A stretch of 29,067 nucleotides of DNA from Candidatus Asgardarchaeum abyssi (GTDB taxonomy: Archaea; Asgardarchaeota; Asgardarchaeia; Asgardarchaeales; Asgardarchaeaceae), in the NCBI GenBank assembly GCA_040225955.1, contig JBECUL010000024.1, positions 1 through 29,067 on the forward strand. Reading direction: 5' to 3'. A program made the position numbers and the translations under genes. Below, piece after piece: positions 1,870-23,357 of this stretch; positions within the stretch are counted from its first letter, which is position 1; each line of letters begins with the position of its first letter. The notes under the pieces were generated by a model. The model made no database searches. It saw only the letters and a list, made by a program, of their open reading frames with translations, and had not been told where the DNA came from.

Positions 1870-2709
1870 TTAATAATTATGCGGTGAGCTTATGTCAAGT
1901 TTTCTAAGGTATCTTAGTAACCTTACTACACCAAGCCCCCTTGTTCTTTTTACGCCTACATTAGAAAATTCAGCAAACCGAGAAAGCACATATAGCCATC
2001 CCTTATATTTTTCATCTTTTATTAAAAAACCGACATGTCCCTTAAAACCAACGATTTTCTCAGCTTTTCCAATATCCACCTCTTTCGTTACTATCTTGTA
2101 CTCCCTAACATAAACATTTTTCTCAACCCACTCCTTAAAATCCTCAAGATATACTCTCACTTCGGAAAACGTGTTCCAAATCCTAGCTAAATTTGTAAAC
2201 ACAAGCCTAGGAACAGGAAGAATAGTGGGATAGTTCTTAGCTTTCTCTTTAAACTGTGCCGGCGTTAGGAACTTAAAACGAATTATATTATCATCATGTT
2301 TTTTCTTCAATTCTTCCCTCAAAAGCTCTTCCATCGATAATTTATTAAAGTTTATTTGATGAACGTGAAAATCGAGAACTCCTAGTTTTAAATTGCCGTC
2401 AACCACAGATAATAGAATATCCATAATTGTTTTCTCTAGCCTCTCATCTAAGATCGAAAAACCAAATCTATAACTTTTGCTAGCCTCAATCTCCCACATC
2501 CCTGACTTTAGTCTTTTCTTAAAGCCCATTGGGTGCAAAGGAATCACAGCATAAGGACGAATAGCATTAACATCATGAAGCTGCTTGGATAAATTCGGAT
2601 CCTCTTTCTCTATTGTGTGAAGAAATAACCCCTGTACCAGGTGCCCCGTGAACATAGGTAAGTAACCAGTAACAAGTGAGACGACATCAAACTCCACTTT
2701 TAACATCAT
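1870..2709 (-). CDS. cas6: CRISPR pre-crRNA processing endoribonuclease Cas6
   Basis: N-terminal FTGHLVQGLFL, FKFLTP motif, VGFKG, C-terminal G-rich loop SNVGVKRTRGLGVV. Confidence 0.93.
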   Translation of the reverse strand: MMLKVEFDVVSLVTGYLPMFTGHLVQGLFLHTIEKEDPNLSKQLHDVNAIRPYAVIPLHPMGFKKRLKSGMWEIEASKSYRFGFSILDERLEKTIMDILLSVVDGNLKLGVLDFHVHQINFNKLSMEELLREELKKKHDDNIIRFKFLTPAQFKEKAKNYPTILPVPRLVFTNLARIWNTFSEVRVYLEDFKEWVEKNVYVREYKIVTKEVDIGKAEKIVGFKGHVGFLIKDEKYKGWLYVLSRFAEFSNVGVKRTRGLGVVRLLRYLRKLDISSPHNY

Positions 2710-2891: not shown

Positions 2892-3022
2892 GAGCAAGTT
2901 ATTGGTCTTGACCCCGTTCAGGGTAAACCACAAGCCCACATCACATTGCCCTTTCGGTGCTTTATTGCCACCACATTCAGGTATTACCTTAAATGATCAA
3001 AATATTTAACTGTTTCAGAGGG
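2892..3022 (-). mobile_element. Truncated second copy of the IS607-like mini-element
   Basis: Near-identical to 725-866 (gagcaagt-attggtcttgaccccgttcagggtaaaccacaagcccacatcacattgccc...aaaatatttaact-tttc-gaggg), with a short internal deletion and lacking the 646-724 part. Confidence 0.85.
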
Positions 3023-3106
3023 CATGATATTATGATTTTTGAGTATTTAGTACACCTAGAAAGATTTATAATAGCATTTTTTGTAACGATTATTAAGGTG
3101 AAAATA

Positions 3107-3976
3107 ATGGAATCCGCTAGGGAAGATACCATCATTGAGTTCATAAAGAAGTTACCAGAGGTACTTAGTAAGCATCCTGAACTTAAAAGAACATTAATGG
3201 ATGCCCTTGGAATCCCAGAAAACATAGGGGAAAGTCTTCAAGCCATATTACTCGAACTTAAGAAACTTAGGGAGGACTTCAATAAACAAATACTGGAACT
3301 GAGAAAAACTCATCAAGATGACATGAAACACGTATTGAGCGAAATAGAAAGAGTATGGAGTGAAATAGAAAAATTAAGAAATGACTATAACAGACAATTT
3401 GAGGCTTTTCAGAAGCGGATGGATCAGTTCGAAGAGCACTTGAAAAAACTTGACACGCGAATAGATCAGTTCGAAGAGCACTTGAAAAAACTTGACACGC
3501 GAATGGATCAGTTCGAGGAACACTTGAAAAAACTTGACACGCGAATGGATCAGTTCGAGGAGCACTTGAAAAAACTTGAGAGAGCAGTTAATTCATTAAG
3601 TTAACGAGTAACATCGCTTGGTGCGAGATGGGGATATGACAATGAGAATGCTGTAAGGAATGCAATAAAGGGGCTGTTAGAAGAGGACTTTGGAGTGAGA
3701 GTTGAGAAGTGGGAGTACTTTGACGAAGAAGGTTTCGTATACTGGAGGCCCAGCACTGTTGAGGTAGATGTGGTAGTTAAGGATGCAAAGCATATTCTTA
3801 TAGAGATAAAATCGCATGTGACGAAAAATGACGTGGCAATATTTTTGAAAAAAAGTGAATTGTACAGAAGAGTAACAGGAGTAGAACCAGAGCTTATGAT
3901 AGTTACACCTTACATAGAACCTACGGCTGAGGCCTATGCAAAGGACAATAAGATAAGGGTATATACAAAGGTTTGA
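3107..3976 (+). pseudogene. Coiled-coil + PD-(D/E)XK nuclease-fold protein (archaeal DUF3782/DUF1626-like) with an in-frame TAA at 3602-3604
   Basis: Likely start ATG 3107 after GGTGA. The frame continues past the stop as SLS*RVTSLGARWGYDNENAVRNAIKGLLEEDFGVRVEKWEYFDEEG... into ORF 3695..3976, with VEVDVVV...LIEIKS catalytic motifs. LGARWG is typical of this family. Confidence 0.82.
3419..3579 (+). repeat. Coding tandem repeat, 42-bp unit x ~3.8 (MDQFEEHLKKLDTR, two heptads per unit)
   Basis: Units start at 3419, 3461, 3503 and 3545: atggatcagttcgaagagcacttgaaaaaacttgacacgcga with few substitutions. Confidence 0.95.
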
Positions 3977-4324: not shown

Positions 4325-5794
4325 TCATATTCCGATGTGTTTTGATTTTCTTGGTCTTATTTGAGCGATAACAGGTGCTTTTAGTGCTATTCCGCTTACT
4401 ATTCCAACTCCATTTGGGAGGAAAGGAACTCTTTGTAAGTCAGAGATCACAGAGTAGCTTATATAAGGAGATATATAATCCAAATCTGTTTTACTATCGA
4501 TTCTGAGAATTATTTTTGTTCCACATTGACTAATTACGTCTTTGTCGAGACCTACAATTCTCTGGCTTGTCAAGCATAGGCCAATTCCGAACTTTCTCCC
4601 CTCTCTGGCTATTTTCCGCATCATGCTCTTACTGTAGCTTTCTTCGTCTTGAGGGGCAAATCTATGGCTTTCCTCAACCACTACCATTAGAGGGGGGATT
4701 ATTTGTTTCTTTCTTGCCTTAAATAATATATCAAGCAGCACACCGACTAAACTTATTCTAATTTTTTCTTCAATATCTTCACTTAGATCGACAATTGTGA
4801 GTCTACCAGGTGAAACTAATTCCTCTATCTTTGGAGGCGTACCAATAATTCCAAGCTCGCGAATTAGTTGCAATTTCCTTTTTATAGTAAATACCGTTCT
4901 TGACGCAAATTTCCACTCCGACGCCACTTTATCAACACTTTCAATGACATTGTCTATAGTAATTCGCATCTTTTCTTTCTTTAGGTTCTGAAATACCAAG
5001 AAAAGCAAATCATATTGTGTTTCAGTGGCTCCCAACATTTCTGCAAATGAGTCTGCGTTAAGCCAATCTAAACTTATTCTTAATGTCTTTGACCCGGGGT
5101 AGGATGCGAAAATAGAATATCTGATAATATCATATGACTTAGGTTCTAATCCCCATTTTTCTAATAAGCTTCCTTCCTCATAGTTTGGTGTGTTAAATCC
5201 ATGATATTCTCCATGAGTGTCTATTACAACAACTGGATAGTTGTTTTCAAGTAACTCTTCAATAATCACACCAACTGTATAGCTTTTTCCACTTCCCGTT
5301 GCACCCAGAACTGCAATATGATGTTTTATTGTTCTCTTGATATCCAAAACTATGTCAATGTTATTATTCCCATACATCTTACCCAAATAAATTCCTTTTT
5401 CTGGAAGCTTGAGAAATTGTTTTAAAAGGTCACTAGAAGCCAAATAGACAGTATCGCCGGGTTCTGGAGCGTCATTAGGTGGAGAAATTTGCCCATCTTC
5501 TATTATCCCAATTATTTGAACTGTTGCAGCCCTCCATCGGCCTATATCAACAGGATATCTGGCGTATAGCGGCATATCTCTTTTAAGATGATCCTTGATA
5601 AAAGTCGGATCTTGGAATAACTCATTTATAGAGTGCAACCTTATAATTCTCCCCAATATTATTCTTGACCCTAACGGAACCTCTACAAACTCACCAACCT
5701 TAACATCTGCATCATCATCGAGCTGAAAATTGAACTGAAGATGAGTAGGACCAGTTCTATCTGATAATATAACTCCTAATCTTTTAGCCTTCAT
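4325..5794 (-). CDS. herA: HerA/FtsK-family ATPase (HAS barrel + helicase-like domain)
   Basis: N-terminal barrel (VKVGEFVEV...ILGRI, PEPGDTVYLA), Walker A HIAVLGATGSGKS, VVVIDTHGEY, Walker B VVVEESHRFAP, IAREGRKFGIGLCLTSQR. Overlaps the upstream gene by 11 bp. Confidence 0.93.
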   Translation of the reverse strand: MKAKRLGVILSDRTGPTHLQFNFQLDDDADVKVGEFVEVPLGSRIILGRIIRLHSINELFQDPTFIKDHLKRDMPLYARYPVDIGRWRAATVQIIGIIEDGQISPPNDAPEPGDTVYLASSDLLKQFLKLPEKGIYLGKMYGNNNIDIVLDIKRTIKHHIAVLGATGSGKSYTVGVIIEELLENNYPVVVIDTHGEYHGFNTPNYEEGSLLEKWGLEPKSYDIIRYSIFASYPGSKTLRISLDWLNADSFAEMLGATETQYDLLFLVFQNLKKEKMRITIDNVIESVDKVASEWKFASRTVFTIKRKLQLIRELGIIGTPPKIEELVSPGRLTIVDLSEDIEEKIRISLVGVLLDILFKARKKQIIPPLMVVVEESHRFAPQDEESYSKSMMRKIAREGRKFGIGLCLTSQRIVGLDKDVISQCGTKIILRIDSKTDLDYISPYISYSVISDLQRVPFLPNGVGIVSGIALKAPVIAQIRPRKSKHIGI

Positions 5795-7235
5795 CAGATT
5801 CCTCCCCGAATAGAATTCTATCCCTTCTTATTTCATACTCTTCTATATAGGATCTAAGAGCACCGTGTATTGCCATTTCAATATTTCGTTTCAAAAACAT
5901 TAGATTGTTCTTTGCTAATATTTGGGCCGTTCCAGCTATACTAGGTCCTGATAGTACGGATCGATCAGGGGCTGGAAGACTTAATGAATATAAAGTGTCT
6001 AATACTCTCTCTTGGTCCTCAAGTGGAGAATCTGTTATCATCTCTACTTTTAATACGAAATTATGCCGTTTTATGTAAAACTCATACCAGTTACTTATTG
6101 GAGGTCGGCCTCTTTCTGTCTTTCTTTTAACGGGGCATGTAGCCTCCCCATCATATAATATTCCGAGCATTAAATTGAGATCACTTGTTTCTCCTATTTT
6201 CATACGTTTAACAGTATTCAATATTCGAATAATATAATTATCATGCGGTACAACGCTAACTCCCACCAAAAGCACATCTTTCTTCCTTGAAAGCTCTAAT
6301 AATCTCTTAAAAAGAGTATGTACCCTATCTCTTAATTCCATGAGATGTCTGCTGTACACAATAAATCCATGCGGCACAAGAGATCCATTTCTGAATAATA
6401 TTCTAAATTTATCACCATATTCTTTTATGGCCTCATAATCAGCACTCAAGTGCTGATATTCAACAAGGTAACGAGCTGCTATCTTTCTCCCAGACTCTAA
6501 AAGTTCTGGGAAATCACTCGTCATTTCATAAAATGGATCACCAGGAAGAAAAGGCTCCTTGCCTTTATATGTTCTCAAATCCGGTCTTATTATGCTTTTA
6601 GATCGATCTCTATCTAAGACATTTCTGCTAAAGTATCCAACATAATTCGCTGCTGAGAGGAAAACTATTGACATCGTCATTATATCTCTATATCTATAGT
6701 TCCCTAAGGTATACGCGGATGCACTTCCAGAAAACCAGACATTATCCAAAAATAAATCCCTAGCTCTCCTTTCTAAAATAAATTTATCTCCAACAAATCC
6801 CCATCTTTCAAGCTCACTATCGATTCTAAGATTTCTTAATTCATCACGAAGTTTACCAGAAAGCAAATAATCCATGTCAACCCTTTTTAGAATACTTTTT
6901 ATTTTCTCATTTATGCTTCCTAAATGCGCTAATTCAGCAACTCTTACTGGGTCTATAAAATCCTCTAATGTAATCATAGGCGTTGGTTCTAGTACGTTAT
7001 TCATCATAACTTGGTAAAGACGTCGCTGGTTCACGCTATAACGTCCACTTCCTTCATACTCAAGAACGCCTAATGTGGTTAAAATCTTTAAATAATCCCT
7101 GATAGATCTATCTGTTAAAGAAGTTTTTTCGGTTAATTCCTTTGGAGTAACATGTCCCTTTCTTTGCTGAATTTCCAAAATTATATTTAAAAGAGCTGTT
7201 AACCTTACACGGATAGTTGAGCTTGTCCGCCCCAA
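5784..7235 (-). CDS. N-terminal winged-helix domain fused to a NurA-like domain with degenerate catalytic motifs
   Basis: HTH TPKELTEKTSLTDRSIRDYLKILTTLGVLEYEGSGRYSV. NurA-like segments WFSGSASA, ILFRNGSLVP, LLVGVS, FYIKR...VLKVEM, SGPSIAGTAQILAK. Translationally coupled to herA, as nurA normally is. Confidence 0.75.
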   Translation of the reverse strand: MGRTSSTIRVRLTALLNIILEIQQRKGHVTPKELTEKTSLTDRSIRDYLKILTTLGVLEYEGSGRYSVNQRRLYQVMMNNVLEPTPMITLEDFIDPVRVAELAHLGSINEKIKSILKRVDMDYLLSGKLRDELRNLRIDSELERWGFVGDKFILERRARDLFLDNVWFSGSASAYTLGNYRYRDIMTMSIVFLSAANYVGYFSRNVLDRDRSKSIIRPDLRTYKGKEPFLPGDPFYEMTSDFPELLESGRKIAARYLVEYQHLSADYEAIKEYGDKFRILFRNGSLVPHGFIVYSRHLMELRDRVHTLFKRLLELSRKKDVLLVGVSVVPHDNYIIRILNTVKRMKIGETSDLNLMLGILYDGEATCPVKRKTERGRPPISNWYEFYIKRHNFVLKVEMITDSPLEDQERVLDTLYSLSLPAPDRSVLSGPSIAGTAQILAKNNLMFLKRNIEMAIHGALRSYIEEYEIRRDRILFGEESDEG

Positions 7236-7246
7236 AGATTAACACC

Positions 7247-7295
7247 TGAAATATATTTCCTATTTTAAAATATATTTCAAGCGATAAAATATAAA
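7247..7295 (-). promoter_or_regulatory. Promoter with palindromic operator for the wHTH-NurA/herA operon
   Basis: Perfect 12-bp inverted repeat tgaaatatattt (7247-7258) / aaatatatttca (7268-7279); each arm contains the palindrome aaatatattt. Minus-strand TATA-like tttatatt at ~7288-7295; RBS GGTG at 7243-7246. Confidence 0.6.
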
Positions 7296-7378
7296 CTTTA
7301 CTAAATAAATCTCATTAAGTGAATTCAGCGGGTAAATAGCGCTTTCCTAATTCTAAAATAAATACATTTCACTGCTTC

Positions 7379-7774
7379 TTACGAGTACAAATCCATTTTT
7401 AACTGAATGTCTTGTATCTGACCCAACGCAAAAAGAATCAGTTTATTATACAAATTCTTATCTCTAATTAGTATCGGCAAGCCATACATTAATATCTTAT
7501 ACTGCAATTTTGGAAAAACTTCATCCAGCGGTATGAGATCTATAGGAATATCTATAGCTCTTTCTAACCTATCACCTAGGAGTAGAATTTCTTTTAAACT
7601 AAGACGCGGATAAGCATAAATAGCTATATCTATATCACGAACCTCTCTTCTACGCAACGCAGACCCAAAAATAATGGCTATTTTCACTCTATTGTCTTTC
7701 ACCAATATTTGTTTTAATTTGGGTACTATCCTATTAAGGTCAATATTATAGTAGACAATACTCATTTTACTCAC
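7379..7774 (-). CDS. mntA: Minimal nucleotidyltransferase (MNT) antitoxin of a HEPN/MNT pair
   Basis: AIIFGSALRRREVRDIDIAIY (GS...DxD), IDLIPL, ILMYGLPI; adjacent to a DUF86 HEPN gene. Confidence 0.88.
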   Translation of the reverse strand: MSKMSIVYYNIDLNRIVPKLKQILVKDNRVKIAIIFGSALRRREVRDIDIAIYAYPRLSLKEILLLGDRLERAIDIPIDLIPLDEVFPKLQYKILMYGLPILIRDKNLYNKLILFALGQIQDIQLKMDLYS

Positions 7775-8134
7775 CTTTTATGTTTTTTAATAGCTTTTCT
7801 ACACACTCAAAATCATTTTTAATCGAAACATAGATTTTGTAGTCATCTACTATCCAATACCTGTGGATGATCATGTTCCTCAATCTAACTAACGCGACTA
7901 GGTCATCCACACATTTCAGACCTAATTTTTCAGCAACAAATCTTACAGTATCAACATATGATTTAGGAACAAAATCGTATCTCTCTTTCGCAATGTAAAT
8001 ACAGAGAGATATTAGCGATTCAACCAATAATATAATGTTATATCTGATGGAGTATTTTTCTTCGATATATAACTCACTAAAAGGCTTAGATGTTAGTCTA
8101 AGAGCTCATTAATAGCCTCTTCGGCTTCAGCTAC
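7767..8134 (-). pseudogene. hepT: DUF86/HepT-like HEPN ribonuclease toxin, 5'-truncated and frameshifted
   Basis: HEPN motif RNMIIHRY plus PKSYVD. Family-like sequence extends upstream of the 8027 TTG (RLTSKPFSELYIEEKYSIRYNIILLVESL), shifts frame near 8101 to VAEAEEAINEL, and is preceded by a stop with no start codon. Confidence 0.78.
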
Positions 8135-8182: not shown

Positions 8183-10582
8183 TTAATGCCGCTGTTTCAT
8201 ATATTTATGCCGCTGTTTCATATATTTAACAGCCACAGCAATAATGAAAATTGCTGCAATTCCTATTCCAAACATTATAGTAGGTGATAATTCAAAGCCT
8301 CCTAGTGGCTGTTCTGAAAGTATATATAATTCTGACTGTTTTCCAAGAGTGTATAGGCTTACTTGTGGATCGTAATTTATTTCGGTGGTGTTTCTTGGAA
8401 TTCCAACGAAATTGGTGAAAATTATATGCCACTCTGCCATTTCAAAGTTTCTGTAAAAGGCTTGTCCCCAAGCATAATCAAATGAAACGTTAACAGTGCC
8501 ATTATAAATGTAGCTACCATTAACTGCTGTATAGTTTTTATTTACGAAGAAATCCCCAATAACATCCATAGCCCTTATAGAAAGGCCCCTTGAGGTTGAA
8601 AGGCTGTTCACAGGATAGTATACATTATCATTCCATACCCCTGTTAACAAGCCTACTGCAATACAGTAGTTTTTGGGCAAAATACCCCAATCAATATCGT
8701 AAAGTTTTAAGTTGACATCAACTTTAATGGTGACATTATCGTAGAGGAGGAGTGAACCTTTACTAGTGGTTTCAAAGGGTATGATGTGAAATGTGAGGGT
8801 TATATTTCCTTTGGCGGAGTTGCCAATAACTTCTAATATGTCGGCTGCATAGGACCACGCATATTCGATGTGTGAAGTATTAATGAAGTTTAACCCAGTA
8901 ATTTCAAAGGTGTAATAGTATGCTTTGTGCCCATGCCAAATTTCATTTTTAAGCTCAGAAAACTTTGCACTTGCGTTTACAAGGTTTGTCACAAAAAACA
9001 CTTGATCTGTGATAACTCTTCTAACTATAAGATGGGGGTTGTCTGGATGAGTTTCATAACAGAATGAGAGTCTTCCATTACCGTCACTATCGTTATAAAC
9101 GATTATAGGCATAAGCAGAGTTCCAAATGGGCTATGTTTAGAAAAAGTTTTATTTTCCCTTGAAATCAAGGTCTGCAAGGTGACAAAAAATATTTCGACG
9201 TAAGGATTTTGTATCTCAAATTCTTCACCAGGGTTCAGGGGATGTTGCCCTCCTATGAGTGGTCTAGCTGTTATACTCATTTCACCTGCTTTTCCATACC
9301 ATTCAGATAGCGGTATTGGGTTGTAAGCTACACTTTCCACATTTATTTCATTGGTGACATTGTATACGTGGATTCCGGCAAGCATTTCTGCTCCAAAAAT
9401 CAGATTGCCATCAACTACGATATCCATCAATCTATCAAAACTCGTAGCATTACATAATTCATAGATATCATGTGGATCCGAGATGTTTAATACGTGTAGT
9501 CCGTAAATGTTATCCGCAACAACTAAAGTTTCGTTATCAAATAAATCTAGACCCATTGAACACTTCAAAGTTTCATTATAATGTGAGATTAACGTAGGAG
9601 ATGATTTGCTACTTATATCAAAGACGTAGAGCCCGCCAATACCTCCAGCGACAAATAAAGTATCATTGAGAACTAAAGCATCATAACCCATACAAGGTAA
9701 ATGAGTACTAACGATAGTCGTAGGGTTACTTAAATCTGAAATATTTAGCACAATGAAATCACCTATATGCGTAACTATGTAGGCGTAGTTTTTGTCAACA
9801 ATTAAATTTTTCAAATTCATAAAGGGTTCAGAAAAACATGGTCTTAGATCGACGTTGTCTTGAATGTCAAAGCTTAATTCTGTAACTGACATAATCACTG
9901 GACTAGAGATATTAGAAATGTTGAGTATAGCTAGATATCTGCCTAATAGCACAAAAAGGTTGTTTTCAACTAGTTCAAAATCTCTAATAATTTCATCTGG
10001 ACCCTTGTGTGGACCTTTGTACCATGTACTTTCGATCGTAGTGTTTGCTAGCAAAATTGGTTCCTGTGGATTAGAAACATTATATATTAGGATGAACCAT
10101 GGTCCCCAATCTGGTAGGGGGCTTGTCGAGAGAATCATAAGATCATTTTTCATATATATTGCTGTACAAATACTATAATCAGCCACTGGGTTAGGTACCG
10201 CTTCCGTTCCTGTGACATATCTAATCAAAGCTATGTTTTTAATGTCTGAAGCATCTAAAAGCGTTGTAAAGCCAGGATCCTGCCTAGTATATGCCAGAAT
10301 TAGGTCGCCGGATTTGTAAATATCGAAGATAAACTGTGGATCATAGACTTTTACATGTGAAGACATAATTTCGTTTAAAAATTCTATGCGAATTTCTCCA
10401 TTTGGATTTGCAATTATTGTTTTAATGTTTGAATCATTTAAGTTTTGCAAGCCTCTATGGAAGTTTACCATATATCCTTGATAACTTGACATCGTTGTCA
10501 ATAATAGAAGAAATAAGGTGGTTACGAAAATTTTCTGCAGCACACTCACTTTTCGTAACAACCTCCTATTGAGGCAATACAT
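8183..10582 (-). CDS. Membrane-anchored surface protein with LVIVD-repeat beta-propeller
   Basis: N-terminal hydrophobic signal (IFVTTLFLLLLTT); repeated ILIYNVSNPQEP / LAILNISNISSP / FIVLNISDLSNP / GLYVFDISSKSSP / GLHVLNISDPHD; DSDGNG Ca-binding-like motif; many NxS/T sequons; C-terminal TM helix with basic tail. Confidence 0.85.
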   Translation of the reverse strand: MYCLNRRLLRKVSVLQKIFVTTLFLLLLTTMSSYQGYMVNFHRGLQNLNDSNIKTIIANPNGEIRIEFLNEIMSSHVKVYDPQFIFDIYKSGDLILAYTRQDPGFTTLLDASDIKNIALIRYVTGTEAVPNPVADYSICTAIYMKNDLMILSTSPLPDWGPWFILIYNVSNPQEPILLANTTIESTWYKGPHKGPDEIIRDFELVENNLFVLLGRYLAILNISNISSPVIMSVTELSFDIQDNVDLRPCFSEPFMNLKNLIVDKNYAYIVTHIGDFIVLNISDLSNPTTIVSTHLPCMGYDALVLNDTLFVAGGIGGLYVFDISSKSSPTLISHYNETLKCSMGLDLFDNETLVVADNIYGLHVLNISDPHDIYELCNATSFDRLMDIVVDGNLIFGAEMLAGIHVYNVTNEINVESVAYNPIPLSEWYGKAGEMSITARPLIGGQHPLNPGEEFEIQNPYVEIFFVTLQTLISRENKTFSKHSPFGTLLMPIIVYNDSDGNGRLSFCYETHPDNPHLIVRRVITDQVFFVTNLVNASAKFSELKNEIWHGHKAYYYTFEITGLNFINTSHIEYAWSYAADILEVIGNSAKGNITLTFHIIPFETTSKGSLLLYDNVTIKVDVNLKLYDIDWGILPKNYCIAVGLLTGVWNDNVYYPVNSLSTSRGLSIRAMDVIGDFFVNKNYTAVNGSYIYNGTVNVSFDYAWGQAFYRNFEMAEWHIIFTNFVGIPRNTTEINYDPQVSLYTLGKQSELYILSEQPLGGFELSPTIMFGIGIAAIFIIAVAVKYMKQRHKYMKQRH
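8186..8227. repeat. Perfect 21-bp tandem duplication at the end of the LVIVD gene (KYMKQRH x2)
   Basis: atgccgctgtttcatatattt at 8186-8206 and 8207-8227. Confidence 0.9.
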
Positions 10583-11140
10583 TATATATTAAATTAATAT
10601 TATTATTAATTATTAATATTTATTTATATTTATAATATTTATTATTTTTTCAGAAATTTTGCCGTAATCTACACGCTTCCACCCTCATACTCGCTTCACC
10701 AATCGCTATAAGCCAGTAGCTCCCATCACTATCGCTTCTAGACGCATCAACGCCATATGACTCAACCATGAAAGATATAAACCGAAGCTTCTCAACGTTG
10801 GACTCACCAGCATTCGCCGTAGTAATTAAGAAAAATTTTGTCCATATAGTTGCTTTGTTGAACAATTCAATGAATGGTTGCGTAATGTTATAATAATATC
10901 GCCGATAAATGTGTTATATGCGATATCATAATAACTTGCTCTAAATTCCGATTTCATAACTTCAATATAACATTGTTTTGGTCAACAAAGCACCATATAG
11001 TGAGGTGTGTTATAATATTCATCATCATACCCTTTTTAATCACCCATTCTCTGATAGAGAGATGATAATCTGGTACATTTCTGTGTACATGAAAATACTT
11101 ATATTTGTATCACAATATTGTTTACATAAGGTGTGTTACG

Positions 11141-11359
11141 ATGAGTTCCACTTTTAGTATAAGAATCTCTAAAAAGTTAAAGGAGGAAATGAAGAAGTAT
11201 TCAAAAGTTGATTGGGCAAATGAAATCAGAAAGTACATTCAGAAAAAAATAAGGGAATTAAAGTTAGAAGAGATTCTTACTAAGGCGAAAAGTTTAAGGC
11301 AGCAAATGAAAGTGGAAATAAATCACGTAGAACTTATTAGAGAGGATAGAGAGAGATGA
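11141..11359 (+). CDS. vapB: Ribbon-helix-helix antitoxin (VapB-like)
   Basis: MSSTFSIRISKKLKEEMKKYSKVDWANEIRKYI...ELIREDRER; ATG 11141 follows an AGGTG RBS; ATGA overlap with the PIN gene. Confidence 0.85.
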   Translation: MSSTFSIRISKKLKEEMKKYSKVDWANEIRKYIQKKIRELKLEEILTKAKSLRQQMKVEINHVELIREDRER

Positions 11360-11775
11360 AAATTGTTTTAGATTCAAGCATCATTGCAGCCTTGTTCTTT
11401 AAAGATCCTTTTTCAGAAGCTGCCGAGAAATCTCTGAAACGGTATGATGAATATTATACTGTTGATTTTGCAGCGGTTGAAATTGCTAATGTAGCTTGGA
11501 AACGAGTGACTTTGTTTAATGAGAGTAGAAAAATTATTGAAGAAGCATTAGATGATGCAATAAACTTCATAGAAACGTTATGTTGTGTTGTTTCTTCTTA
11601 TAAAATATATAGAAATGCTTTTAACATTGGTATTGCTACAAAGATTCCTATTTATGATGCTCTTTTTCTTGCCCTTGCAAACATTTTAAACTCTAAGCTA
11701 CTAACATGTGATACTAAGTTAAAAAACAGTTTAAGAAAAACAAAATATTTTAAGTTGCTGGAATATCCCACATAG
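11356..11775 (+). CDS. vapC: PIN-domain toxin (VapC)
   Basis: IVLDSS, AVEIANV, IYDALFLALA, LLTCDTKL: the acidic PIN residues are present. Confidence 0.92.
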   Translation: MKIVLDSSIIAALFFKDPFSEAAEKSLKRYDEYYTVDFAAVEIANVAWKRVTLFNESRKIIEEALDDAINFIETLCCVVSSYKIYRNAFNIGIATKIPIYDALFLALANILNSKLLTCDTKLKNSLRKTKYFKLLEYPT

Positions 11776-12137: not shown

Positions 12138-13589
12138 TTAAGAATTGAGAATAATTAAGTGCTTAGATAATCGATTGATAGCATCTCTTAGTGCAATATA
12201 TTGAGGCCCAGAACCTAATGGTATTTTTATAAGGCCTACGGTTCCGTTTATTTCTTCTTTTATCGAGGCTTCGAATAAGAGGCTGTTATAATAAATTTGG
12301 TTTGCGGAGACAATGTAGTACTTTACGTTCAGCTTAATATTGCTAAATTTTGCTTCAATTTTTGGCTTTAGCTCGTTTAGCTTATTCTCCAAAATGAGCC
12401 TATTAATGTAGGTTAAAGGGGAGTAATACGCGATAATTACGACATCAACTGTCTTCTTAATTTTGAGTATTGAATGTATAAATTCAAGAATAGCAAGAAT
12501 GTTTGCAAGGCTAAATTGCTCTGTAACCACAACTGGAACTACAATTTTTGAGATAGTACCTATGTTCAAGTCATGGTTTGGCCTATTTAAAAATGAAATA
12601 AAAACACTGAAACCGCCAATAAGAATATTTTGAAGATCGCAGAAGAAATTGTTAAGGGATGTTATAGCTGGATTTAAACGGATATTATCATTTTTGTCCT
12701 CAGAAAGTCTACGGAGGATTTGCTTAATGAAATCATTATAAATTAAAAGTTTAAATCTATTAACGCTTTCACTATTCCTTTGATAATAGCCTATTAGTTC
12801 TTCTTCTGGAAAGAGTTTTTCTACCACATTCATATATTGTTTTATATCGAAATCAGCATCTTTAGTTAGGTTTAGCAGTTTTCTGAAAAGTTCATCAATA
12901 TATCCAAACCTCGAGTCTATATCTTCTAGTTCATCACAGTATTTAAAGATAGTATCATGGAGTATAGAATATGCCGACTCTCCAGGTAATGCTGTTAACT
13001 TGTAATAGGAGTTGATTAAAACTTCAATAAAACTAATTATTATAGCGAAAACATTGCTAAGATATCTTTCTCTTTCATCTTCATTGATTCTTAAAAGTAA
13101 AAGCGAGAGATACTGATTAAAGATAGCAACTTTTAAAGATGTAGATAATCTGTGCACCCCCATCAATAATGCAATAAATGTATCGACATCAATAGAAATA
13201 TAAGAACACTTAGAAATATTCTCTTTAAGCACAGAAGGTATCACTTTCCTATATGTTTCATGAGCTATGGTCATCCAGCCTGTATTATGAGGTACAACCT
13301 TTTTAGTGATAATCCTCGCAACAGTAAAATCGAAAGGAAAGATTTGAGAAGAACTTAAAAAACAAAATAAGTTTTGAAGTGCCCTAGAGAAATCTTCAAC
13401 TGGAGGATAATAAATGACTTTCATGATCCTTTTGCCGATACCTTCAGGGAAGAGATACTCAAGAAATAGCGAATCTAAGGTATCAAATAAATGATTACTC
13501 TTTTTAACATTAACTAAACCCATTGTGAGAAGAGATATGTCTTTCGCTTTCAAATTTTCAACTTTAAAAAGTATTGAACTAATTTTCAC
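12138..13589 (-). CDS. Hypothetical CRISPR-linked protein, 483 aa; C-terminal CARF-like Rossmann domain suspected
   Basis: Long ORF overlapping its upstream partner (GTGA). The C-terminal ~140 aa alternate beta/alpha (IVVPVVVTEQ; VVIIAYYSPLT; VKYYIVS; LIKIPLGSGPQYIAL), as in CARF folds. The fold call is inference. Confidence 0.55.
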   Translation of the reverse strand: MKISSILFKVENLKAKDISLLTMGLVNVKKSNHLFDTLDSLFLEYLFPEGIGKRIMKVIYYPPVEDFSRALQNLFCFLSSSQIFPFDFTVARIITKKVVPHNTGWMTIAHETYRKVIPSVLKENISKCSYISIDVDTFIALLMGVHRLSTSLKVAIFNQYLSLLLLRINEDERERYLSNVFAIIISFIEVLINSYYKLTALPGESAYSILHDTIFKYCDELEDIDSRFGYIDELFRKLLNLTKDADFDIKQYMNVVEKLFPEEELIGYYQRNSESVNRFKLLIYNDFIKQILRRLSEDKNDNIRLNPAITSLNNFFCDLQNILIGGFSVFISFLNRPNHDLNIGTISKIVVPVVVTEQFSLANILAILEFIHSILKIKKTVDVVIIAYYSPLTYINRLILENKLNELKPKIEAKFSNIKLNVKYYIVSANQIYYNSLLFEASIKEEINGTVGLIKIPLGSGPQYIALRDAINRLSKHLIILNS

Positions 13590-15043
13590 TTACCCCCTTT
13601 TATAGTAAATAATTTGAAAAACGGTACTTCAAAAATAGATGCCCAGTCATGTTTCTTATTGATTGTTGATTCTAAATCTGTCAGACTGAGCAAGTATCGT
13701 CCGTACATTACAAATTTTCGGTTTATTTTAGTTTGTCCTTTTAGTAATTTGCCTTGCATAACAAAGTTTGTCTCAGGTACAATTATGAAATAGATGGAAT
13801 CGTCATGTAATATTAACCTACTTGAAAAGAAGCTGATTATTTTCTCAAGAAAATCCTTCTTAAAATCTTGCAAGACAAAGAATAGCAGATGCTTTCCATC
13901 AGCAATCTGATTTAGGAATTCATTGCTTTTCTCAAGATCACTATCTGCAGAGAAATACCAAATATTAATGTTTTTGCTTTTACATGAAATAGTATTTCTC
14001 AATTTCGTATAAATTTTCGATGATATTTTTATTTTTTCAAGTTCTGGATTGGTAGCTACCAGTATATTGTACTTAAAATCATTGCTGTAATTAAGAGTTT
14101 GTTTGGTTAGATTTACAAACGATCTTACAATATTGACAAAGGATTCACACATGAATCTCATACGGTTTTCTTGCCTTACCAATTGAGGTAACAATAAAAT
14201 TGTAAAATATTTTTCCTCAGAGTTTGTACATGTTTTAGTGAATTCAAAAGCCACTTTTTGAAGCAAAATTGCTAAGGATATGCTTGATATAAGCTCTAGA
14301 GTCTTCTTATTAGGCCATTTACGCTCAATTAAATTGTTTAATTTTTTAATTCTTTTTAGGTGAATCTTGCTGAAATTATTTATCTTATTAAGCAAGTGCC
14401 TAAGCGCTAGCTCGGAGGTTATAAATTTTCCTAATCCATTTGGAATATTATGATCGTTGTTTTCGGATAAACAATACGCTTTTCTAATAACCTTAATAGA
14501 TTCTCGTATATCCTCAAAGAACTTATTAGCAAATGGGAAAGATGTTGTTAAAATCAACCAGTTGACAAAATTATTGATTTCTGCAATAGGCAATTCACAA
14601 AGCAAAGAAAACGCAGTTTCCTTATCAATGTCAGGCGGCACTATGTCATCTAAAATACCCCGGATCATCTCAGAGTAGCATTCATTCAAAAAATCTATTG
14701 CATTTTTAGGTATGAACAAGGAGAGAGGACCCATTGAAAAGTCATCAGTTACATTTCTATTTTTTGTATAAAGAACAGGGACGTCTGATGGGAAAATTAT
14801 ATCTCTCAAAGGCTTGCTTAGATATTCTTTACGATTAGACACGTCTTCTACAAATAGTGGAGTATATATGTTGTCTCCATGTTTTTGTATGTTTTCTACT
14901 CTTTCATTTGAATTAATTCGTAGCACTAAAAAATAATCATATTCTCTTATAGCATCAGTTGATGTGTATGTCAAATCAGGGTAAAACACTTGAAATGATT
15001 TTTCAATATATTCAACATTACAATTCTTTTTTTGTTTATTCAT
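13586..15043 (-). CDS. Hypothetical CRISPR-linked protein, 485 aa; C-terminal Rossmann/CARF-like domain possible
   Basis: Long ORF divergent from cas10 with GAGGG RBS; helical middle, then FTILLLPQ / NILVATNP / INIWYFS / LLFFVLQD / IYFIIVPE beta-strand pattern. Confidence 0.5.
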   Translation of the reverse strand: MNKQKKNCNVEYIEKSFQVFYPDLTYTSTDAIREYDYFLVLRINSNERVENIQKHGDNIYTPLFVEDVSNRKEYLSKPLRDIIFPSDVPVLYTKNRNVTDDFSMGPLSLFIPKNAIDFLNECYSEMIRGILDDIVPPDIDKETAFSLLCELPIAEINNFVNWLILTTSFPFANKFFEDIRESIKVIRKAYCLSENNDHNIPNGLGKFITSELALRHLLNKINNFSKIHLKRIKKLNNLIERKWPNKKTLELISSISLAILLQKVAFEFTKTCTNSEEKYFTILLLPQLVRQENRMRFMCESFVNIVRSFVNLTKQTLNYSNDFKYNILVATNPELEKIKISSKIYTKLRNTISCKSKNINIWYFSADSDLEKSNEFLNQIADGKHLLFFVLQDFKKDFLEKIISFFSSRLILHDDSIYFIIVPETNFVMQGKLLKGQTKINRKFVMYGRYLLSLTDLESTINKKHDWASIFEVPFFKLFTIKGGK

Positions 15044-15389: not shown

Positions 15390-18098
15390 ATGAACGATGA
15401 AATATCATTATATGTTAATCCAATACTCTTTGAGATTAAAAAGACTATAATAAATGATGATTTTGTAGAAAGAATAGTAAAGTTCCTAAAAAGTAGAAAG
15501 TTTGATAATATTCTCACAAGTTATGATAAAGTAATCAGAAGTGAAGAAATGAACGAACTTTTAAAAGATATTTCACCAAAAAATACAGTATTACTTGTTT
15601 TTCAAAACATTATGGATTACGTTGATTTAACTAACCTTTTTGTTTATGTTTTTATTCATGAATTGGAAAGAAAAAATAAGCAGTTATTGGAGAAAAGTGA
15701 TTTTTTCAAAAGTTTTAAGATGAACAACATAAATGAATTTATAAATTTTATTAGACTTGTCGTTTTTCTAAAAGCAATTTTAAAACGATCAAAAAAACTT
15801 TACAACGGGCTAATTACAGTGCTGAAAGAAAAAGATTTAGAATACGTGGAAAAAATAGTTAACGCGATAGAGAAGATTAATGTTAGTTCTCAATTTAGTG
15901 AAGACATCGTTTGTCGAATAATAAATCTTTCATTTAATCTAGCAGAAAAAGGCTTTATTCCTTTTTTCAGTTTTATTATAGAAGGTTTTAGAAATAATAA
16001 CCAAGAAAGTTATCCAAAAAATTCGTTTTTTCATGCCTTTCGATGGCTTTTTAATGAATTAACCACATATGCAGACTTATTTGAAGATAAAGATACACTC
16101 ATTTTGATATCAGAAGCTTTTGAGAAAAAAGATCTGAACGTACTATATGAACTTAAGTTGGTCCCTAGGAATATAACATTTAGCACTATTGAAGAAATCA
16201 GCAATACACTAATCCCAGGCATATGGAACAACTATAAAGATATATTGGAAAATACGAGAATTTCAGTGATTTTGATTGATCTAAAAGGCATACAGAAATT
16301 TATAACACGATCAGAATATCGTTTTTACTTGGCAGGAGCTAGTTCATATATTGAAACTACTCTTAGAGAAATTAATGAAGAGCTGATTAATAAAGGAATC
16401 CCACCTGAATGCATAATTTTTAGTACTGGAGGAGGAATTTTATTAGTAGTCCCAGAAAATAAGGCGACCGATGCGTATTCAATCATTTCAAATAACGTGA
16501 AAAGGCGATTTGGTACGGCAGTAGGTATCAGAACCAACTACTCTAACTTTAAAAATAAATATCTTTTTCATCCGATTGAATTAATATATGGTCCAATTTA
16601 TTCGTGGCAATCACAAAATAACCTACCAATGAGGGGATTTGGTGGAATTTTTAATTATATTTTAAAAAATCTTGAAGATAAAACGCTAAATGAGCGTTTT
16701 GCAGTTCATAATTTAACATATAATGATATATGCGCTGTATGTTTTAATAAAAAAGGTGAAAATCGAAATAATCCAGAAGACGCTCAAATAATAGAAAAAG
16801 TAGCAGGACCCGAATTCAAGGGAAAGAAAATATGCGATATTTGTTTTAATGTAATTAAGCATGAGTATGATAAAAAATATACTCTTAGAGAAAAGGGTTA
16901 TAGCGGATTAATTTCCATAACTGTTAAGGGCAATAAAGTTATTGCATCGGTAAGTGACTACATAAAAGAAAAGACTAAAATTCCACTTTTTGAGGTTCTG
17001 CATAAGATTACAGAGATTATTAATTCTAATGAGAAACTAAATAAAAAAATATACATAGCTCTTAGTGATATCGAATCCAATAAAATTTCATTTAAATACG
17101 TAAGAACATGGGATGAGCTTGGTAAGCTTTCTTATATGCTAAGCAAAATAGAAGAGGTTACTCATCCAGAAATTGCATTGATAAAAGGTGATGGTGATAA
17201 TTTTGGCACCGTAAAAGCATTAATGTCATCAATAGCAACATATAAACAAATCTCAAGGCTATTTTCAGAGATTTCTATAGAGGGTGTTGCTTACGGTTTT
17301 GCAAACGTAATATTAATGAGTTTAAATGAATATGCAGAAAACTACTTTAAATACATTGACACCATATATTTGCCATTTGATGTGCTATATATTGGTGGCG
17401 ATGATCTAACCTTGTTACTTGATGCAGGATTCGTATTCAGTTTTATAAAATATCTTCATGAATTTTTAATTCAAAGAGTAGGGTTGCAAAAAACAGGTGA
17501 TTATCATAAAGATAGAGATAATATCTCAGCGTTAAGTCCTATAAATTTAGGTTATTCTCTTGGAATATCAATATTTCCGAATAATATGCCTCTATACATG
17601 GCCCTTTATACGACCAATGAACTAGAATCAATGGCTAAGAAAAAATCTAAAAAGAGAAACATAAAACATGGTGGAACTATTACAGTTGCATTTCAGAGAT
17701 TTATTGGTATTCCATCCAAGCATATCATTCATGATATCTATGGACCTAAAAATGGTAACATCAAGCTAACAGCATGGCCAAGAAGTTATGACGAGCTATT
17801 TGATAGACGAAAAGGTATCTTACCGAAAATAAAACAACTTTTAGCTCATGATATAAGTGCAAATAAAATTTTACGTTTCATAAAGGTAGATGATATAGAT
17901 GCTGACGAAATAAAGCTTAAAATAAATTACGCTGCTGCACGAATGAGCAAAAGCAGGCAAGATGAAGCAAGCTTATTAAGAGAATTAGCACGTTTTTCTT
18001 TTATAATATTAGATGATATTCTATCATTTCAACTTAGAGATATTGTAGATATTATGAGAACAGTTCATGAAAATGAAAGATTACTAGCTGTTAGTTAA
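15390..18098 (+). CDS. cas10: Type III CRISPR large subunit Cas10 (intact cyclase Palm, degenerate HD)
   Basis: ILIDLKGIQKFI...LAGASSYIE, FSTGGGILLVV, Zn finger CAVC...CDIC, LIKGDGDNFG, LYIGGDDLTLL. No HD dyad in the N-terminal region. Confidence 0.95.
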   Translation: MNDEISLYVNPILFEIKKTIINDDFVERIVKFLKSRKFDNILTSYDKVIRSEEMNELLKDISPKNTVLLVFQNIMDYVDLTNLFVYVFIHELERKNKQLLEKSDFFKSFKMNNINEFINFIRLVVFLKAILKRSKKLYNGLITVLKEKDLEYVEKIVNAIEKINVSSQFSEDIVCRIINLSFNLAEKGFIPFFSFIIEGFRNNNQESYPKNSFFHAFRWLFNELTTYADLFEDKDTLILISEAFEKKDLNVLYELKLVPRNITFSTIEEISNTLIPGIWNNYKDILENTRISVILIDLKGIQKFITRSEYRFYLAGASSYIETTLREINEELINKGIPPECIIFSTGGGILLVVPENKATDAYSIISNNVKRRFGTAVGIRTNYSNFKNKYLFHPIELIYGPIYSWQSQNNLPMRGFGGIFNYILKNLEDKTLNERFAVHNLTYNDICAVCFNKKGENRNNPEDAQIIEKVAGPEFKGKKICDICFNVIKHEYDKKYTLREKGYSGLISITVKGNKVIASVSDYIKEKTKIPLFEVLHKITEIINSNEKLNKKIYIALSDIESNKISFKYVRTWDELGKLSYMLSKIEEVTHPEIALIKGDGDNFGTVKALMSSIATYKQISRLFSEISIEGVAYGFANVILMSLNEYAENYFKYIDTIYLPFDVLYIGGDDLTLLLDAGFVFSFIKYLHEFLIQRVGLQKTGDYHKDRDNISALSPINLGYSLGISIFPNNMPLYMALYTTNELESMAKKKSKKRNIKHGGTITVAFQRFIGIPSKHIIHDIYGPKNGNIKLTAWPRSYDELFDRRKGILPKIKQLLAHDISANKILRFIKVDDIDADEIKLKINYAAARMSKSRQDEASLLRELARFSFIILDDILSFQLRDIVDIMRTVHENERLLAVS

Positions 18099-18109
18099 GA
18101 GGTGTTATA

Positions 18110-18769
18110 ATGAGTTCTACCATGATATATAATAAACCAATCGAAGTTATAATAGAAATTAAAGGTTTTTTCCGAATTGGTGGTGAAACTGATTTTAGAA
18201 GTGCCTTTTTACCACTTGCAAGAAATAAAAGTAGTAAAATACCTATATCATTAGTAAACATGACATCAAGCTTTAAAGGAATTCTAAGAAAATCTGCAAT
18301 GAGATTTATTAATAGCAAGATTCTAAGCCAAAATAATGAACTCAAAAACATGTTAACAAACTCTCTTTTTAAACTATTTGGAAAATCTGGAAAAATGCAA
18401 GGAACAATAATATTTGAATTTGTAGGATTTGAAGATACCGTACTAAGGATCGATATAAGACCAGGAATTAAAATAAATCCTGTATTTGGAAGCATAGAAG
18501 AGAAGCACATTTTCTTTTACGAATATGTATATAATAGTTATAATTGTCTAAAGAATATTAAGCTAAAATTTAGAATGACTCCTCTCTACCCTCTAAATGA
18601 ATATGATTGCATCCTATTATTTACAGCAATTAATGGTTTACGATATGATAACATAGGAGGGTTTAATTCTAGAGGCGGAGGGTTTATTGAAAATATTTTG
18701 GTTGATGAGAATTTTACTAATAGAGCCAAAAAGATCGTTAATAAACTTAAGGTGTTGAAAAATGTTTGA
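18110..18769 (+). CDS. cas7: Cas7-group RAMP (Csm3-like)
   Basis: FRIGG, SSFKGILRK, LFG, RPGIKIN...IFFYE, G-loop IGGFNSRGGG. Confidence 0.85.
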   Translation: MSSTMIYNKPIEVIIEIKGFFRIGGETDFRSAFLPLARNKSSKIPISLVNMTSSFKGILRKSAMRFINSKILSQNNELKNMLTNSLFKLFGKSGKMQGTIIFEFVGFEDTVLRIDIRPGIKINPVFGSIEEKHIFFYEYVYNSYNCLKNIKLKFRMTPLYPLNEYDCILLFTAINGLRYDNIGGFNSRGGGFIENILVDENFTNRAKKIVNKLKVLKNV

Positions 18770-20072: not shown

Positions 20073-20434
20073 TGTCTCAACAAAATGTAATTAAGTCAAA
20101 ATCAGATTTAATTAATTTAGCTAGACGCATTTTAAGAAATGTTGAATGTGTTAAAAGAGAAGAATCGGATGCCGTAAGTTCAAGCTTTGTCAGAAAAGTT
20201 CTGGAAATTTCTCAAAAGGTAGATAGCATTGAGGAATTTAAACTTTATGTAGGATACTTCGTCTCAAAAAATGCTAAATCCCCCGACTCGGGGTTATACA
20301 CGTTCCAGCATAATTTAGAAAATGCTCTCAAGCAAATCAAATATGATTTGAATACATTAAGAACTCTTATAGAATATGTTGTGATGCTACATACGATAAA
20401 AGCAAAGGAGGAAGAATACAGTGGTTGGTGGTAA
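20072..20434 (+). CDS. cas11: Small subunit Cas11 (Csm2-like)
   Basis: 120-aa all-helical protein inside the operon; VSSSFVRKVLE...EFKLYVGY...LIEYVVMLH pattern. Confidence 0.7.
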   Translation: MSQQNVIKSKSDLINLARRILRNVECVKREESDAVSSSFVRKVLEISQKVDSIEEFKLYVGYFVSKNAKSPDSGLYTFQHNLENALKQIKYDLNTLRTLIEYVVMLHTIKAKEEEYSGWW

Positions 20435-21218: not shown

Positions 21219-21220
21219 TA

Positions 21221-22090: not shown

Positions 22091-22095
22091 TAAGG

Positions 22096-22950: not shown

Positions 22951-23357
22951 TGAAAACCATAAGTAAGGATTTTTTAATTCGAAAAGCAAAAAATTTTGTG
23001 TATAGACTGGAAAACATAGCACGAAATTCACATAAAGCGTTTATCGAACCAACAGGCACACCAAAAAAACCACGATATATAAAGATATTATCACAAGCAC
23101 TAAAAGATTTTTCTTATGATTTTATTATGGGAAATGAAAAACAAGAGTCATTTAGCAAATATATATTGACTGCAATTTATACAACACAAATTCCCAATAA
23201 AAAAGATATCTCAATTATGGACATAAAAAGGTTTATAAATGATTGCCAGAAGGCTTTTCAAAGTGAAATTAGAGAATTGAAGCATAGAGAAGATTTATTA
23301 AATTTTTTAAATTTTTCATTCCTGCTTTTAGAAGTACAGCGGAGAAGAACTTACTAA
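22950..23357 (+). CDS. Small helical protein closing the cas operon; possible second Cas11-like subunit
   Basis: TAATG overlap with the preceding gene and GGGTGG RBS favour ATG 22950 (ORF track uses GTG 22941). Helical pattern ESFSKYI...KRFINDC...LLNFLNFSFLLLE loosely parallels the 120-aa Cas11. Confidence 0.5.
   Translation: MKTISKDFLIRKAKNFVYRLENIARNSHKAFIEPTGTPKKPRYIKILSQALKDFSYDFIMGNEKQESFSKYILTAIYTTQIPNKKDISIMDIKRFINDCQKAFQSEIRELKHREDLLNFLNFSFLLLEVQRRRTY

Follow-up and report, generated by a model that had tools for sequence, protein, structure and literature searches.

The window analysed here is a 29,067 bp stretch (positions 1–29,067, forward strand) of contig JBECUL010000024.1 from Candidatus Asgardarchaeum abyssi (GenBank assembly GCA_040225955.1). 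It contains a two-gene operon, set among CRISPR and cas genes, that encodes a protein predicted to combine an N-terminal winged helix-turn-helix (wHTH) domain with a NurA-fold body, here called P0001, and a HerA-type hexameric ATPase, P0002. The canonical catalytic triad of NurA has been lost throughout the P0001 family, and the operon is preceded by a conserved palindromic operator. On balance, we lean towards the view that the pair is a CRISPR-associated, autoregulated transcription factor/HerA module whose ancestor was a NurA-HerA helicase-nuclease pair. Comparative evidence supports the regulator and CRISPR parts of this reading well. NurA/HerA pairs with a link to CRISPR have been on record since 2012, and in the freely accessible literature we found no earlier account of the wHTH-fused form that lacks the triad, or of its operator.

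The gene pair and its relatives

The P0001 gene lies on the minus strand at 5784–7235 and, as judged from the open reading frame (ORF) and its translation, encodes 483 aa from a TTG start codon (7235–7233) that has GGTG 8 nt upstream. The alignment of P0001 with its orthologues begins at residue 1. The herA gene (P0002; 4325–5794, minus strand; 489 aa; Pfam DUF87) follows, with GGAGG ahead of its ATG, and the two genes overlap by 11 nt (ATGAAGGCTAA). The first-pass annotation, which was made from the sequence alone, had described a coupled operon of two genes with mre11 and rad50 not nearby, and both statements hold. Both ORFs were recovered at these positions on the minus strand, and neither mre11 nor rad50 is present in the window, where no large ORF gives a Pfam match of that kind.

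Relatives of P0001 are few. Only 38 representatives (of clusters at 50% identity) were found among the 1.84 billion proteins searched, and full-length members are present in approximately 20 genomes across approximately 10 families in a sample of 400 genomes from the same phylum. The named relatives come from metagenome-assembled genomes of Asgardarchaeia (65% identity), Jordarchaeales, Njordarchaeia, Heimdallarchaeota, Thorarchaeota and one Bathyarchaeia, and the P0001-herA pair is found mostly in Asgard lineages. When genome contigs were queried with the single P0001 sequence, no relative was returned. In the search for the same architecture in other genomes that the first-pass annotation had suggested, herA was found directly 3′ of the P0001-type gene in every genome locus (16/16) and in the metagenome loci, usually overlapping it, and this adjacency is kept even by members at only 21–23% identity.

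A winged helix fused to a NurA fold

Residues 5–84 of P0001 (6984–7223, minus strand) form the predicted wHTH domain. The Pfam HTH_11 match (E = 4.7e-5, 23.6 bits) is slightly below the 25-bit cut-off, and in structural comparisons the domain matched the wHTHs of IclR, IdeR, ArsR and MarR with VIA Z scores of 8.3–10.3 and root-mean-square deviations (rmsd) of 1.5–2.8 Å. A search of PDB sequences with P0001 alone gave no useful match, and the family profile returned wHTH proteins only, namely the wHTHs of PefI, AF2008 and IdeR. Three residues of the domain, R43, Y48 and L52, are at least 90% conserved, and the recognition region, L-T/S-E/D-R-x-x-R/K-D-Y, is nearly invariant in the family, as would be expected if the wHTH reads an invariant site.

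The NurA-fold (RNase H-like) body spans residues 104–468 (5832–6926, minus strand), as delimited using an AlphaFold2 model, Foldseek, VIA and hhalign. The model, for which 26 of the 38 relatives served as the alignment, has a predicted local distance difference test (pLDDT) score of 83 and a predicted TM-score (pTM) of 0.79. The body matched S. solfataricus NurA (SsoNurA; PDB 2ygk) with a Foldseek E value of 2.8e-9 and, for 2ygk_B, a VIA Z of 19.8 and an rmsd of 4.5 Å, with 279 of 319 residues aligned. The next matches, at Z 12–13, were to TdpAB, T. kodakarensis NurA, D. radiodurans NurA and TM1739, followed by EndoV and PIWI domains, and in a structure search of the Atlas the nearest entry was a NurA cluster (TM 0.61). 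Using hhalign, the P0001 family was aligned with the four Pfam-positive NurAs of the genome at a probability of 81% (E = 1.2e-5), and the family profile reaches Pfam-positive, motif-intact NurAs of the same phylum at E values of 1e-11 to 1e-20. P0001 itself has no match to Pfam NurA (PF09376) at E ≤ 0.1, and weak matches were obtained for only 3/26 relatives (best 6e-4). Because winged helices are matched at a Z of approximately 10 and 2ygk at a Z of 19.8, we take the predicted wHTH plus NurA-fold architecture to be real. It had been read by eye in the first-pass annotation, and the NurA fold stands after the Foldseek comparison with NurA structures that was suggested there.

The Atlas clusters nearest to P0001 by features are cyanobacterial hypothetical proteins of 664–719 aa (score 0.88–0.90). 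In one of them a BlaI-type wHTH (Penicillinase_R) is present in 10% of members, and the structural match extends over residues 97–480 (TM 0.59). These clusters are an unverified lead towards a bacterial wHTH-NurA-like family.

Loss of the canonical active site

In SsoNurA, D58, E116 and D133 are catalytic, K202 is essential and Y298 is conserved, and the D58A substitution alone yields a dead nuclease (Blackwood et al., PMC3326311). Profile-profile alignment places S169 of P0001 on D58, the Asp of the first DGS, and N283 on D133, the Asp of the second motif (DGSL), and SGP..AQ in P0001 is aligned with GYP..AH in NurA, which puts G430 in the place of Y298. Replacement of these motifs, which the first-pass annotation had aligned by eye, is thus upheld by the profiles. 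The remaining replacement that it listed, of the essential Lys, rests on a manual register of the helix and strand beta5 that sets V328 on K202. As hhalign placed the beta5 region differently, the K202-V328 assignment is less secure than the two Asp assignments.

Residues were tabulated for 49 unique (non-identical) full-length family members. The D58-equivalent is acidic in none of them (0/49), the D133-equivalent is Asp in just two (2/49), Lys does not occur at the K202-equivalent position (0/49), and the Y298-equivalent is Gly in 35/49. E or D occupies position 259 in 33/49, and E259 may be what is left of the catalytic Glu. Nine further positions, G170, E237, R255, G284, H289, D332, D352, Y387 and P431, are occupied by the same residue almost without exception, and two of these, G284 and D352, are found in 49/49. 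As the triad has been lost across the 49 relatives while other positions are strictly kept, we conclude that P0001 belongs to a conserved, selected variant and is not a decaying copy. A pseudogene was ruled out because the ORF is intact and the family-specific motifs are strictly conserved. One of the outcomes that the first-pass annotation had set against its own interpretation, a decaying copy among catalytically intact close homologues, is not borne out, as the loss is shared by the whole family.

From sequence, the word ‘dead’ can be applied to the canonical triad only, and E237, H289, D332 and D352 could form a relocated catalytic, metal or ligand site. P0001 might then still be a nuclease, with a site relocated to or remodelled around these residues and perhaps E259, that degrades DNA together with HerA as a defence effector in the manner of canonical HerA-NurA and of bacterial TdpAB and SIR2-HerA, the wHTH serving for autoregulation or targeting. 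The invariant acidic and His residues are family specific, and in the model secondary structure H289 and D332 would lie a few residues after beta4 and beta5, the strands that carry the catalytic residues of NurA. The high proportion of acidic residues at position 259 and the rank of the TdpAB complex as second-best structural match are consistent with this explanation, as is a protein encoded at locus L059 (see below), which keeps the second Asp and the Lys, has a PH motif and suggests gradual remodelling. However, both of the two-metal Asp positions are non-acidic in 47–49 of the 49 members, and both are essential for RNase H-like two-metal catalysis; indeed, loss of the first alone is enough to kill SsoNurA. 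D352 and the E/T motif that follows it are common to canonical NurAs and are not listed there as catalytic, and E237 is within a segment with pLDDT < 50. Model confidence is lowest in the region that contains EPF..PFYE..FPELL (residues ~225–246), the stretch that the family conserves most strongly. We consider an active nuclease to be improbable, but a remodelled active site is a rival to be taken seriously.

A 499 aa protein encoded at L059 (8941–10440, minus strand) in genome G090 has an HTH-like N-terminus and a NurA-like body, and similar ORFs are present in 8 genomes of family f11. Its body has kept the second catalytic Asp and the Lys, and has the PH motif in common with the triad-less family. 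No herA was detected beside the gene. Judging from these residues, the protein may be an evolutionary intermediate between an active NurA and the triad-less regulator.

A palindromic operator conserved across classes

Two operator copies separate the P0001 start codon from a TATA-like box, TTTATATTTT (7286–7295, minus strand), that was read from the sequence. The proximal copy (7248–7259), 13 nt before the start codon, is an exact palindrome, GAAATATATTTC. The distal copy (7267–7278), AAAATATATTTC, has one mismatch and is 19 bp from the proximal one, and jointly the two make up a 12-nt inverted repeat. A degenerate third copy, TAAATACATTTC (7359–7370), has two mismatches and lies in the same intergenic region, but is weak and could be due to chance. 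Going by the usual archaeal spacing, transcription is predicted to start at or near the distal operator, and a TTTATAT element is found at a similar distance in most of the orthologous promoters. The palindromic form of the operator would fit a P0001 dimer.

In 18/20 loci the GAAATATATTTC 12-mer, with up to two mismatches allowed, precedes the start codon of the orthologous gene by 22–44 nt, which bears out the first-pass annotation's proposal that the operon has its own operator. Some of these loci encode proteins of only 30% identity and have flanking DNA that cannot otherwise be aligned, and the loci cover members named as Thor-, Jord- and Asgardarchaeia as well as one Bathyarchaeia contig (49% GC), where the 12-mer occurs just once, before the orthologue. 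In the window genome, the background for the 12-mer with no more than one mismatch is approximately 1 site per 54 kb, and the pair at 7248–7259 and 7267–7278 is the only pair of sites ≤40 nt apart in 2.6 Mb. There are three exact copies of GAAATATATTTC in this genome versus two of the reversed control, and thus no genome-wide enrichment.

An exact second copy of GAAATATATTTC precedes the DUF2797-cas1-cas2-cas4 genes in L047 and L049, and the operon that leads to cas1 in L008. Variant operators (GAAGTTTATTTC, GAAATTTATTTC) were not found to co-vary with the recognition helix. Operator look-alikes at the cas1 loci on contigs C27 and C19, at the cas6 promoter and at the type III promoter were dropped, as they have 2–3 mismatches.

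The HerA partner

P0002 matches Pfam DUF87 with an E value of 2.7e-37, and its HAS-barrel match (E = 5e-5) is just under the cut-off. The architecture expected of HerA, in which a HAS-barrel accompanies a RecA-like core that bears Walker A and Walker B motifs and an Arg finger, is present. Walker A (GATGSGKS) is at residue 164, Walker B (MVVVEE) at 370, REGRK at 397 and SQR at 410, and the catalytic motifs are invariant across 15 orthologous partner HerAs, in agreement with the earlier description of this HerA as intact. Many PADLOC HerA models match P0002, at E values of up to 2e-47, and the ‘HerA Type III coevolved’ model (3.6e-30) is outscored by other HerA models. As P0002 is far under the NCBIfam equivalog cut-off for repair HerA (182 vs 970 bits), it represents a distinct HerA subfamily.

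Contact between the partners was predicted using two chains, NurA-like residues 100–483 and HerA, with alignments supplied for both. The docking gave an ipSAE of 0.57, against 0.00 for the best control, which is weak support, as scores in this range are more often wrong unless binding is already likely. The pass mark was attained by 58/80 solved complexes and 2/110 mismatched pairs, and values of ≤0.60 were seen for just 7 of the 80 solved complexes but for both of the mismatched pairs that passed. At least 83% of contacts were common to the docking runs, and the partner pLDDT was at least 82. Because HerA-NurA complexes have already been solved, the pass may reflect likeness to the solved structures.

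The CRISPR neighbourhood

The first-pass annotation had placed the pair inside a CRISPR island, and the window does contain two cas6 genes, a type III operon and an array around it. The first cas6 gene (1870–2709, minus strand; Pfam CRISPR_Cas6, E = 3e-14) is downstream of herA and in the same orientation, and the two are parted by two plus-strand ORFs. The type III (III-D-like) effector operon (15390–23357, plus strand) encodes Cas10, with GGDD at residue 669, a Csx10-like protein and several Cas7 RAMPs, identified using NCBIfam and Pfam with all matches below equivalog cut-offs. The CRISPR array (28510–29067), with the repeat CTTTCAATCCCCATATAGGGGAATTCTTTCTGCAAG, runs off the end of the window.

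This context recurs in relatives. A cas6 gene is directly 3′ of herA in L009/L044, L011, L050, L055, L056 and L068, and divergent from it in L069. CRISPR arrays or cas1-cas2-cas4 are within 10 kb in L008, L047, L048, L049, L053, L055, L056 and L011. By a plain count, cas genes or arrays are near the pair in at least 12 loci besides the window.

The proximity of adaptation genes in some of these loci raises a different explanation, namely that the pair assists CRISPR adaptation or array maintenance. The complex would thread or unwind fragments of DNA and pass them to Cas4/Cas1-Cas2 or DUF2797, or aid repair of the array after integration; partner nucleases would do the cutting, and the wHTH would only autoregulate or tether the machine near the locus. 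An adaptation role was proposed for CRISPR-linked nurA-herA by Bernick et al. (PMC3396285). The intact HerA ATPase is consistent with it, as are the operator that the pair has in common with the DUF2797-cas1-cas2-cas4 or cas1 operons in L008, L047 and L049 and the closeness of cas1-cas2-cas4 in L047–L049 and L008. However, the neighbours in the window are cas6, the type III operon and toxin-antitoxin genes, the cas1 genes of the window genome are on other contigs and are without the motif, and the most tightly conserved neighbour is cas6 rather than cas1. A helper of this kind is unlikely to be the answer.

Far less probable still is that the pair is just one more NurA-HerA repair paralogue of the ordinary kind that is near CRISPR by chance, with a palindrome that belongs to an unrelated regulator. 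Other NurA-HerA pairs do occur in the same genome, at least three of them (contigs C4, C15 and C12), and the best Pfam NurA of the genome is the one on C4, with a HerA gene beside it. The loci without detected cas genes that are mentioned in the next section also agree with such an origin. Against it, the CRISPR/cas6 context recurs across lineages at 21–65% identity, the catalytic residues have been lost in the whole family, and the operator accompanies the gene across classes.

A model for the function of the pair

In the reading that we prefer, a CRISPR-associated, autoregulated transcription factor/HerA module, P0001 would be a transcription factor for which the NurA dimer serves as scaffold. 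The most likely target of its winged helices is GAAATATATTTC, in the interval from the TATA box to the start codon, and binding there would repress the protein's own operon, which consists of the nurA-like gene and herA, plus cas6 in many genomes. In some genomes, repression by the P0001-type protein may extend to the DUF2797-cas1-cas2-cas4 adaptation operon. Binding to the intact HerA, and to single-stranded DNA (ssDNA) or DNA ends, has probably been retained by the NurA-like body. Once the HerA/NurA-like complex engaged such DNA, the regulator would be displaced from the operator or altered in its state, and foreign or broken DNA would thereby be linked to CRISPR gene expression. A mechanism of this type, with an end sensor that is remodelled by HerA, can reasonably be inferred.

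Several observations weigh against this reading. The other two exact copies of GAAATATATTTC in the genome sit within ORFs, and L056 is without the 12-mer motif. Neither cas1 promoter of the window genome (on C27 and C19) has the motif, the best candidates having 2–3 mismatches, and as there is no convincing site at either cas1 locus, the regulon here appears to be limited to the operon itself. The palindrome could be bound by another regulator and not by the wHTH of P0001. The invariant E237, H289, D332 and D352 discussed above have been kept by the family. The residues with which SsoNurA contacts HerA, I295 and F300 (PMC3326311), are not conserved in the P0001 family, where the F300-equivalent is Ser in 28/49 members. 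Finally, no cas genes were found in L045 and L057 using crude queries.

A more specific proposal can be made only tentatively, and we would rate it as a lesser possibility. The NurA toroid may have become a receptor for nucleic acid ends that, with HerA, acts as an ATP-driven sensor of free ends or ssDNA, derived from invaders or produced by CRISPR interference, and switches on cas6 for CRISPR RNA processing and the cas1 operon for spacer acquisition. If true, Asgard archaea would have a signalling pathway that resembles a DNA-damage response, is coupled to a motor and is dedicated to CRISPR immunity.

Comparison with known systems

For the canonical archaeal NurA-HerA complex, which acts in end resection, the references were S. 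solfataricus 2ygk, P. furiosus 3taz, and the T. kodakarensis and D. radiodurans HerA-NurA structures from cryo-electron microscopy (9x1l, 7f6d). The predicted P0001 body has in common with these NurAs the RNase H-like fold with N- and C-terminal helical extensions and the D...L...E/T motif after strand beta5, and the pair has the adjacent, translationally coupled HerA with intact ATPase motifs. Unlike canonical NurA, P0001 has an extra N-terminal winged helix, the equivalents of D58, D133, K202 and Y298 have been replaced in its family, and it has no Pfam NurA match. Unlike canonical NurA-HerA, the pair has no adjacent mre11/rad50, lies in CRISPR surroundings and is preceded by a palindromic operator that is conserved.

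NurA-HerA pairs linked to CRISPR have been reported before. A nurA-csm6-herA-cas6 cluster was described in Pyrobaculum and other Thermoproteales (Bernick 2012, PMC3396285), the pair was listed as the accessory ‘Cas NurA/Cas HerA’ (Vestergaard 2014, PMC3973734), and co-evolved NurA/HerA clusters 57/58 were associated with type III systems (Shah 2018, PMC6546367). As in these, the P0001 locus has a NurA-type gene and herA beside arrays and cas genes, and the order nurA...herA-cas6 of PAE0122-PAE0131 is that of P0001-type loci. The Thermoproteales CRISPR-linked NurAs are Pfam-positive, with E values of 5e-7 to 2e-16 (Bernick Table A2, PMC3396285). P0001 differs from these NurAs (PAE0122, Tagg_0814, VMUT_1471) in having no such match, and unlike the Pyrobaculum cluster there is no csm6/CARF gene between it and herA. 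Neither a wHTH fusion nor triad loss nor a shared operator is mentioned in these papers, and in the freely accessible literature we found no description of a wHTH-fused or inactive NurA, nor of HerA/NurA linked to CRISPR in Asgard archaea.

By function, the nearest analogue of P0001 may be Csa3. Csa3a and Csa3b (CARF + wHTH) are regulators of CRISPR adaptation and interference genes in the Sulfolobales (PMC5587795). Like them, P0001 is a wHTH factor encoded in a CRISPR locus, with palindromic sites at cas promoters that include those of adaptation genes in some genomes, and by analogy it would have a sensor domain fused to a DNA-binding domain. Unlike Csa3, the putative sensor of P0001 is a NurA fold and not CARF, it is paired with a motor ATPase, and its ligand, if any, would be nucleic acid and not cyclic oligoadenylate.

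HerA is also the basis of bacterial defence systems such as SIR2-HerA (PMC11472057). In SIR2-HerA and TdpAB (PDB 8wet), as in the P0001 pair, a HerA hexamer goes with a partner in a defence island, and TdpB-type partners are NurA-like (Z 12.9 vs P0001). However, the partners in those systems are active effectors, a NADase or a nuclease, whereas P0001 is without the canonical catalytic residues and has a wHTH.

CRISPR-linked NurA-HerA pairs have been catalogued as accessory genes since 2012, and the P0001 variant offers experimental handles. These are a 12-bp operator that is conserved across Asgard classes, and in some genomes is common to the spacer-acquisition operon, a predicted DNA-binding head, an intact motor and a nuclease fold from which the canonical catalytic residues are missing. 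If the proposed reading is true, this would clearly exemplify a regulator that took its sensor or architectural domain from an enzyme scaffold, and it points to transcriptional control of CRISPR adaptation and CRISPR RNA (crRNA) processing in Asgard archaea. To our knowledge, no regulator of either process has been studied in this group. A 2026 review describes Asgard NurA homologues as completely uncharacterised (PMC13748450).

Other genes in the window

The two ORFs between herA and cas6 are a coiled-coil ORF (2993–3604, plus strand) and an ORF with a PDDEXK_10 nuclease domain (3695–3976, plus strand). As the two jointly match what are single ORFs (approximately 333 aa) elsewhere in the genome, on contigs C5 and C9, the window copy looks split or frameshifted. 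This ORF pair (2993–3976) may be an insertion that parted herA from cas6.

Two overlapping genes (12138–13589, minus strand, 483 aa, and 13586–15043, minus strand, 485 aa) are divergent from the cas10 operon, and their products have no Pfam, NCBIfam or PADLOC match. A weak relative of the second, 704 aa long, is encoded directly after a Cmr operon on contig C19. The two products are candidate type III accessory proteins. Two proteins of approximately 540 aa are encoded between the type III operon and the second cas6 gene (23403–25031 and 25147–26772, minus strand). The one of 541 aa has a MarR-type wHTH in mid-protein, with paralogues beside the type I cas operon on C27 and on C37, and possibly represents another CRISPR-linked regulator family. 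In the CRISPR array (28510–29067), spacers 1–3 are the same as spacers 5–7, in the same order. Either a segment of the array has been duplicated or the assembly is at fault at the window end.

Toxin-antitoxin genes pad the CRISPR island in the window, and likewise in L013, L068 and L069. A HepT-like HEPN/MNT (Polbeta nucleotidyltransferase) pair (7379–8027, minus strand) is directly upstream of the P0001-herA operon, and a PIN-domain gene with a small upstream ORF is at 11105–11775 (plus strand). The defence island also includes a gene for a 799 aa LVIVD-repeat protein (8183–10582, minus strand) that has a paralogue on contig C77.

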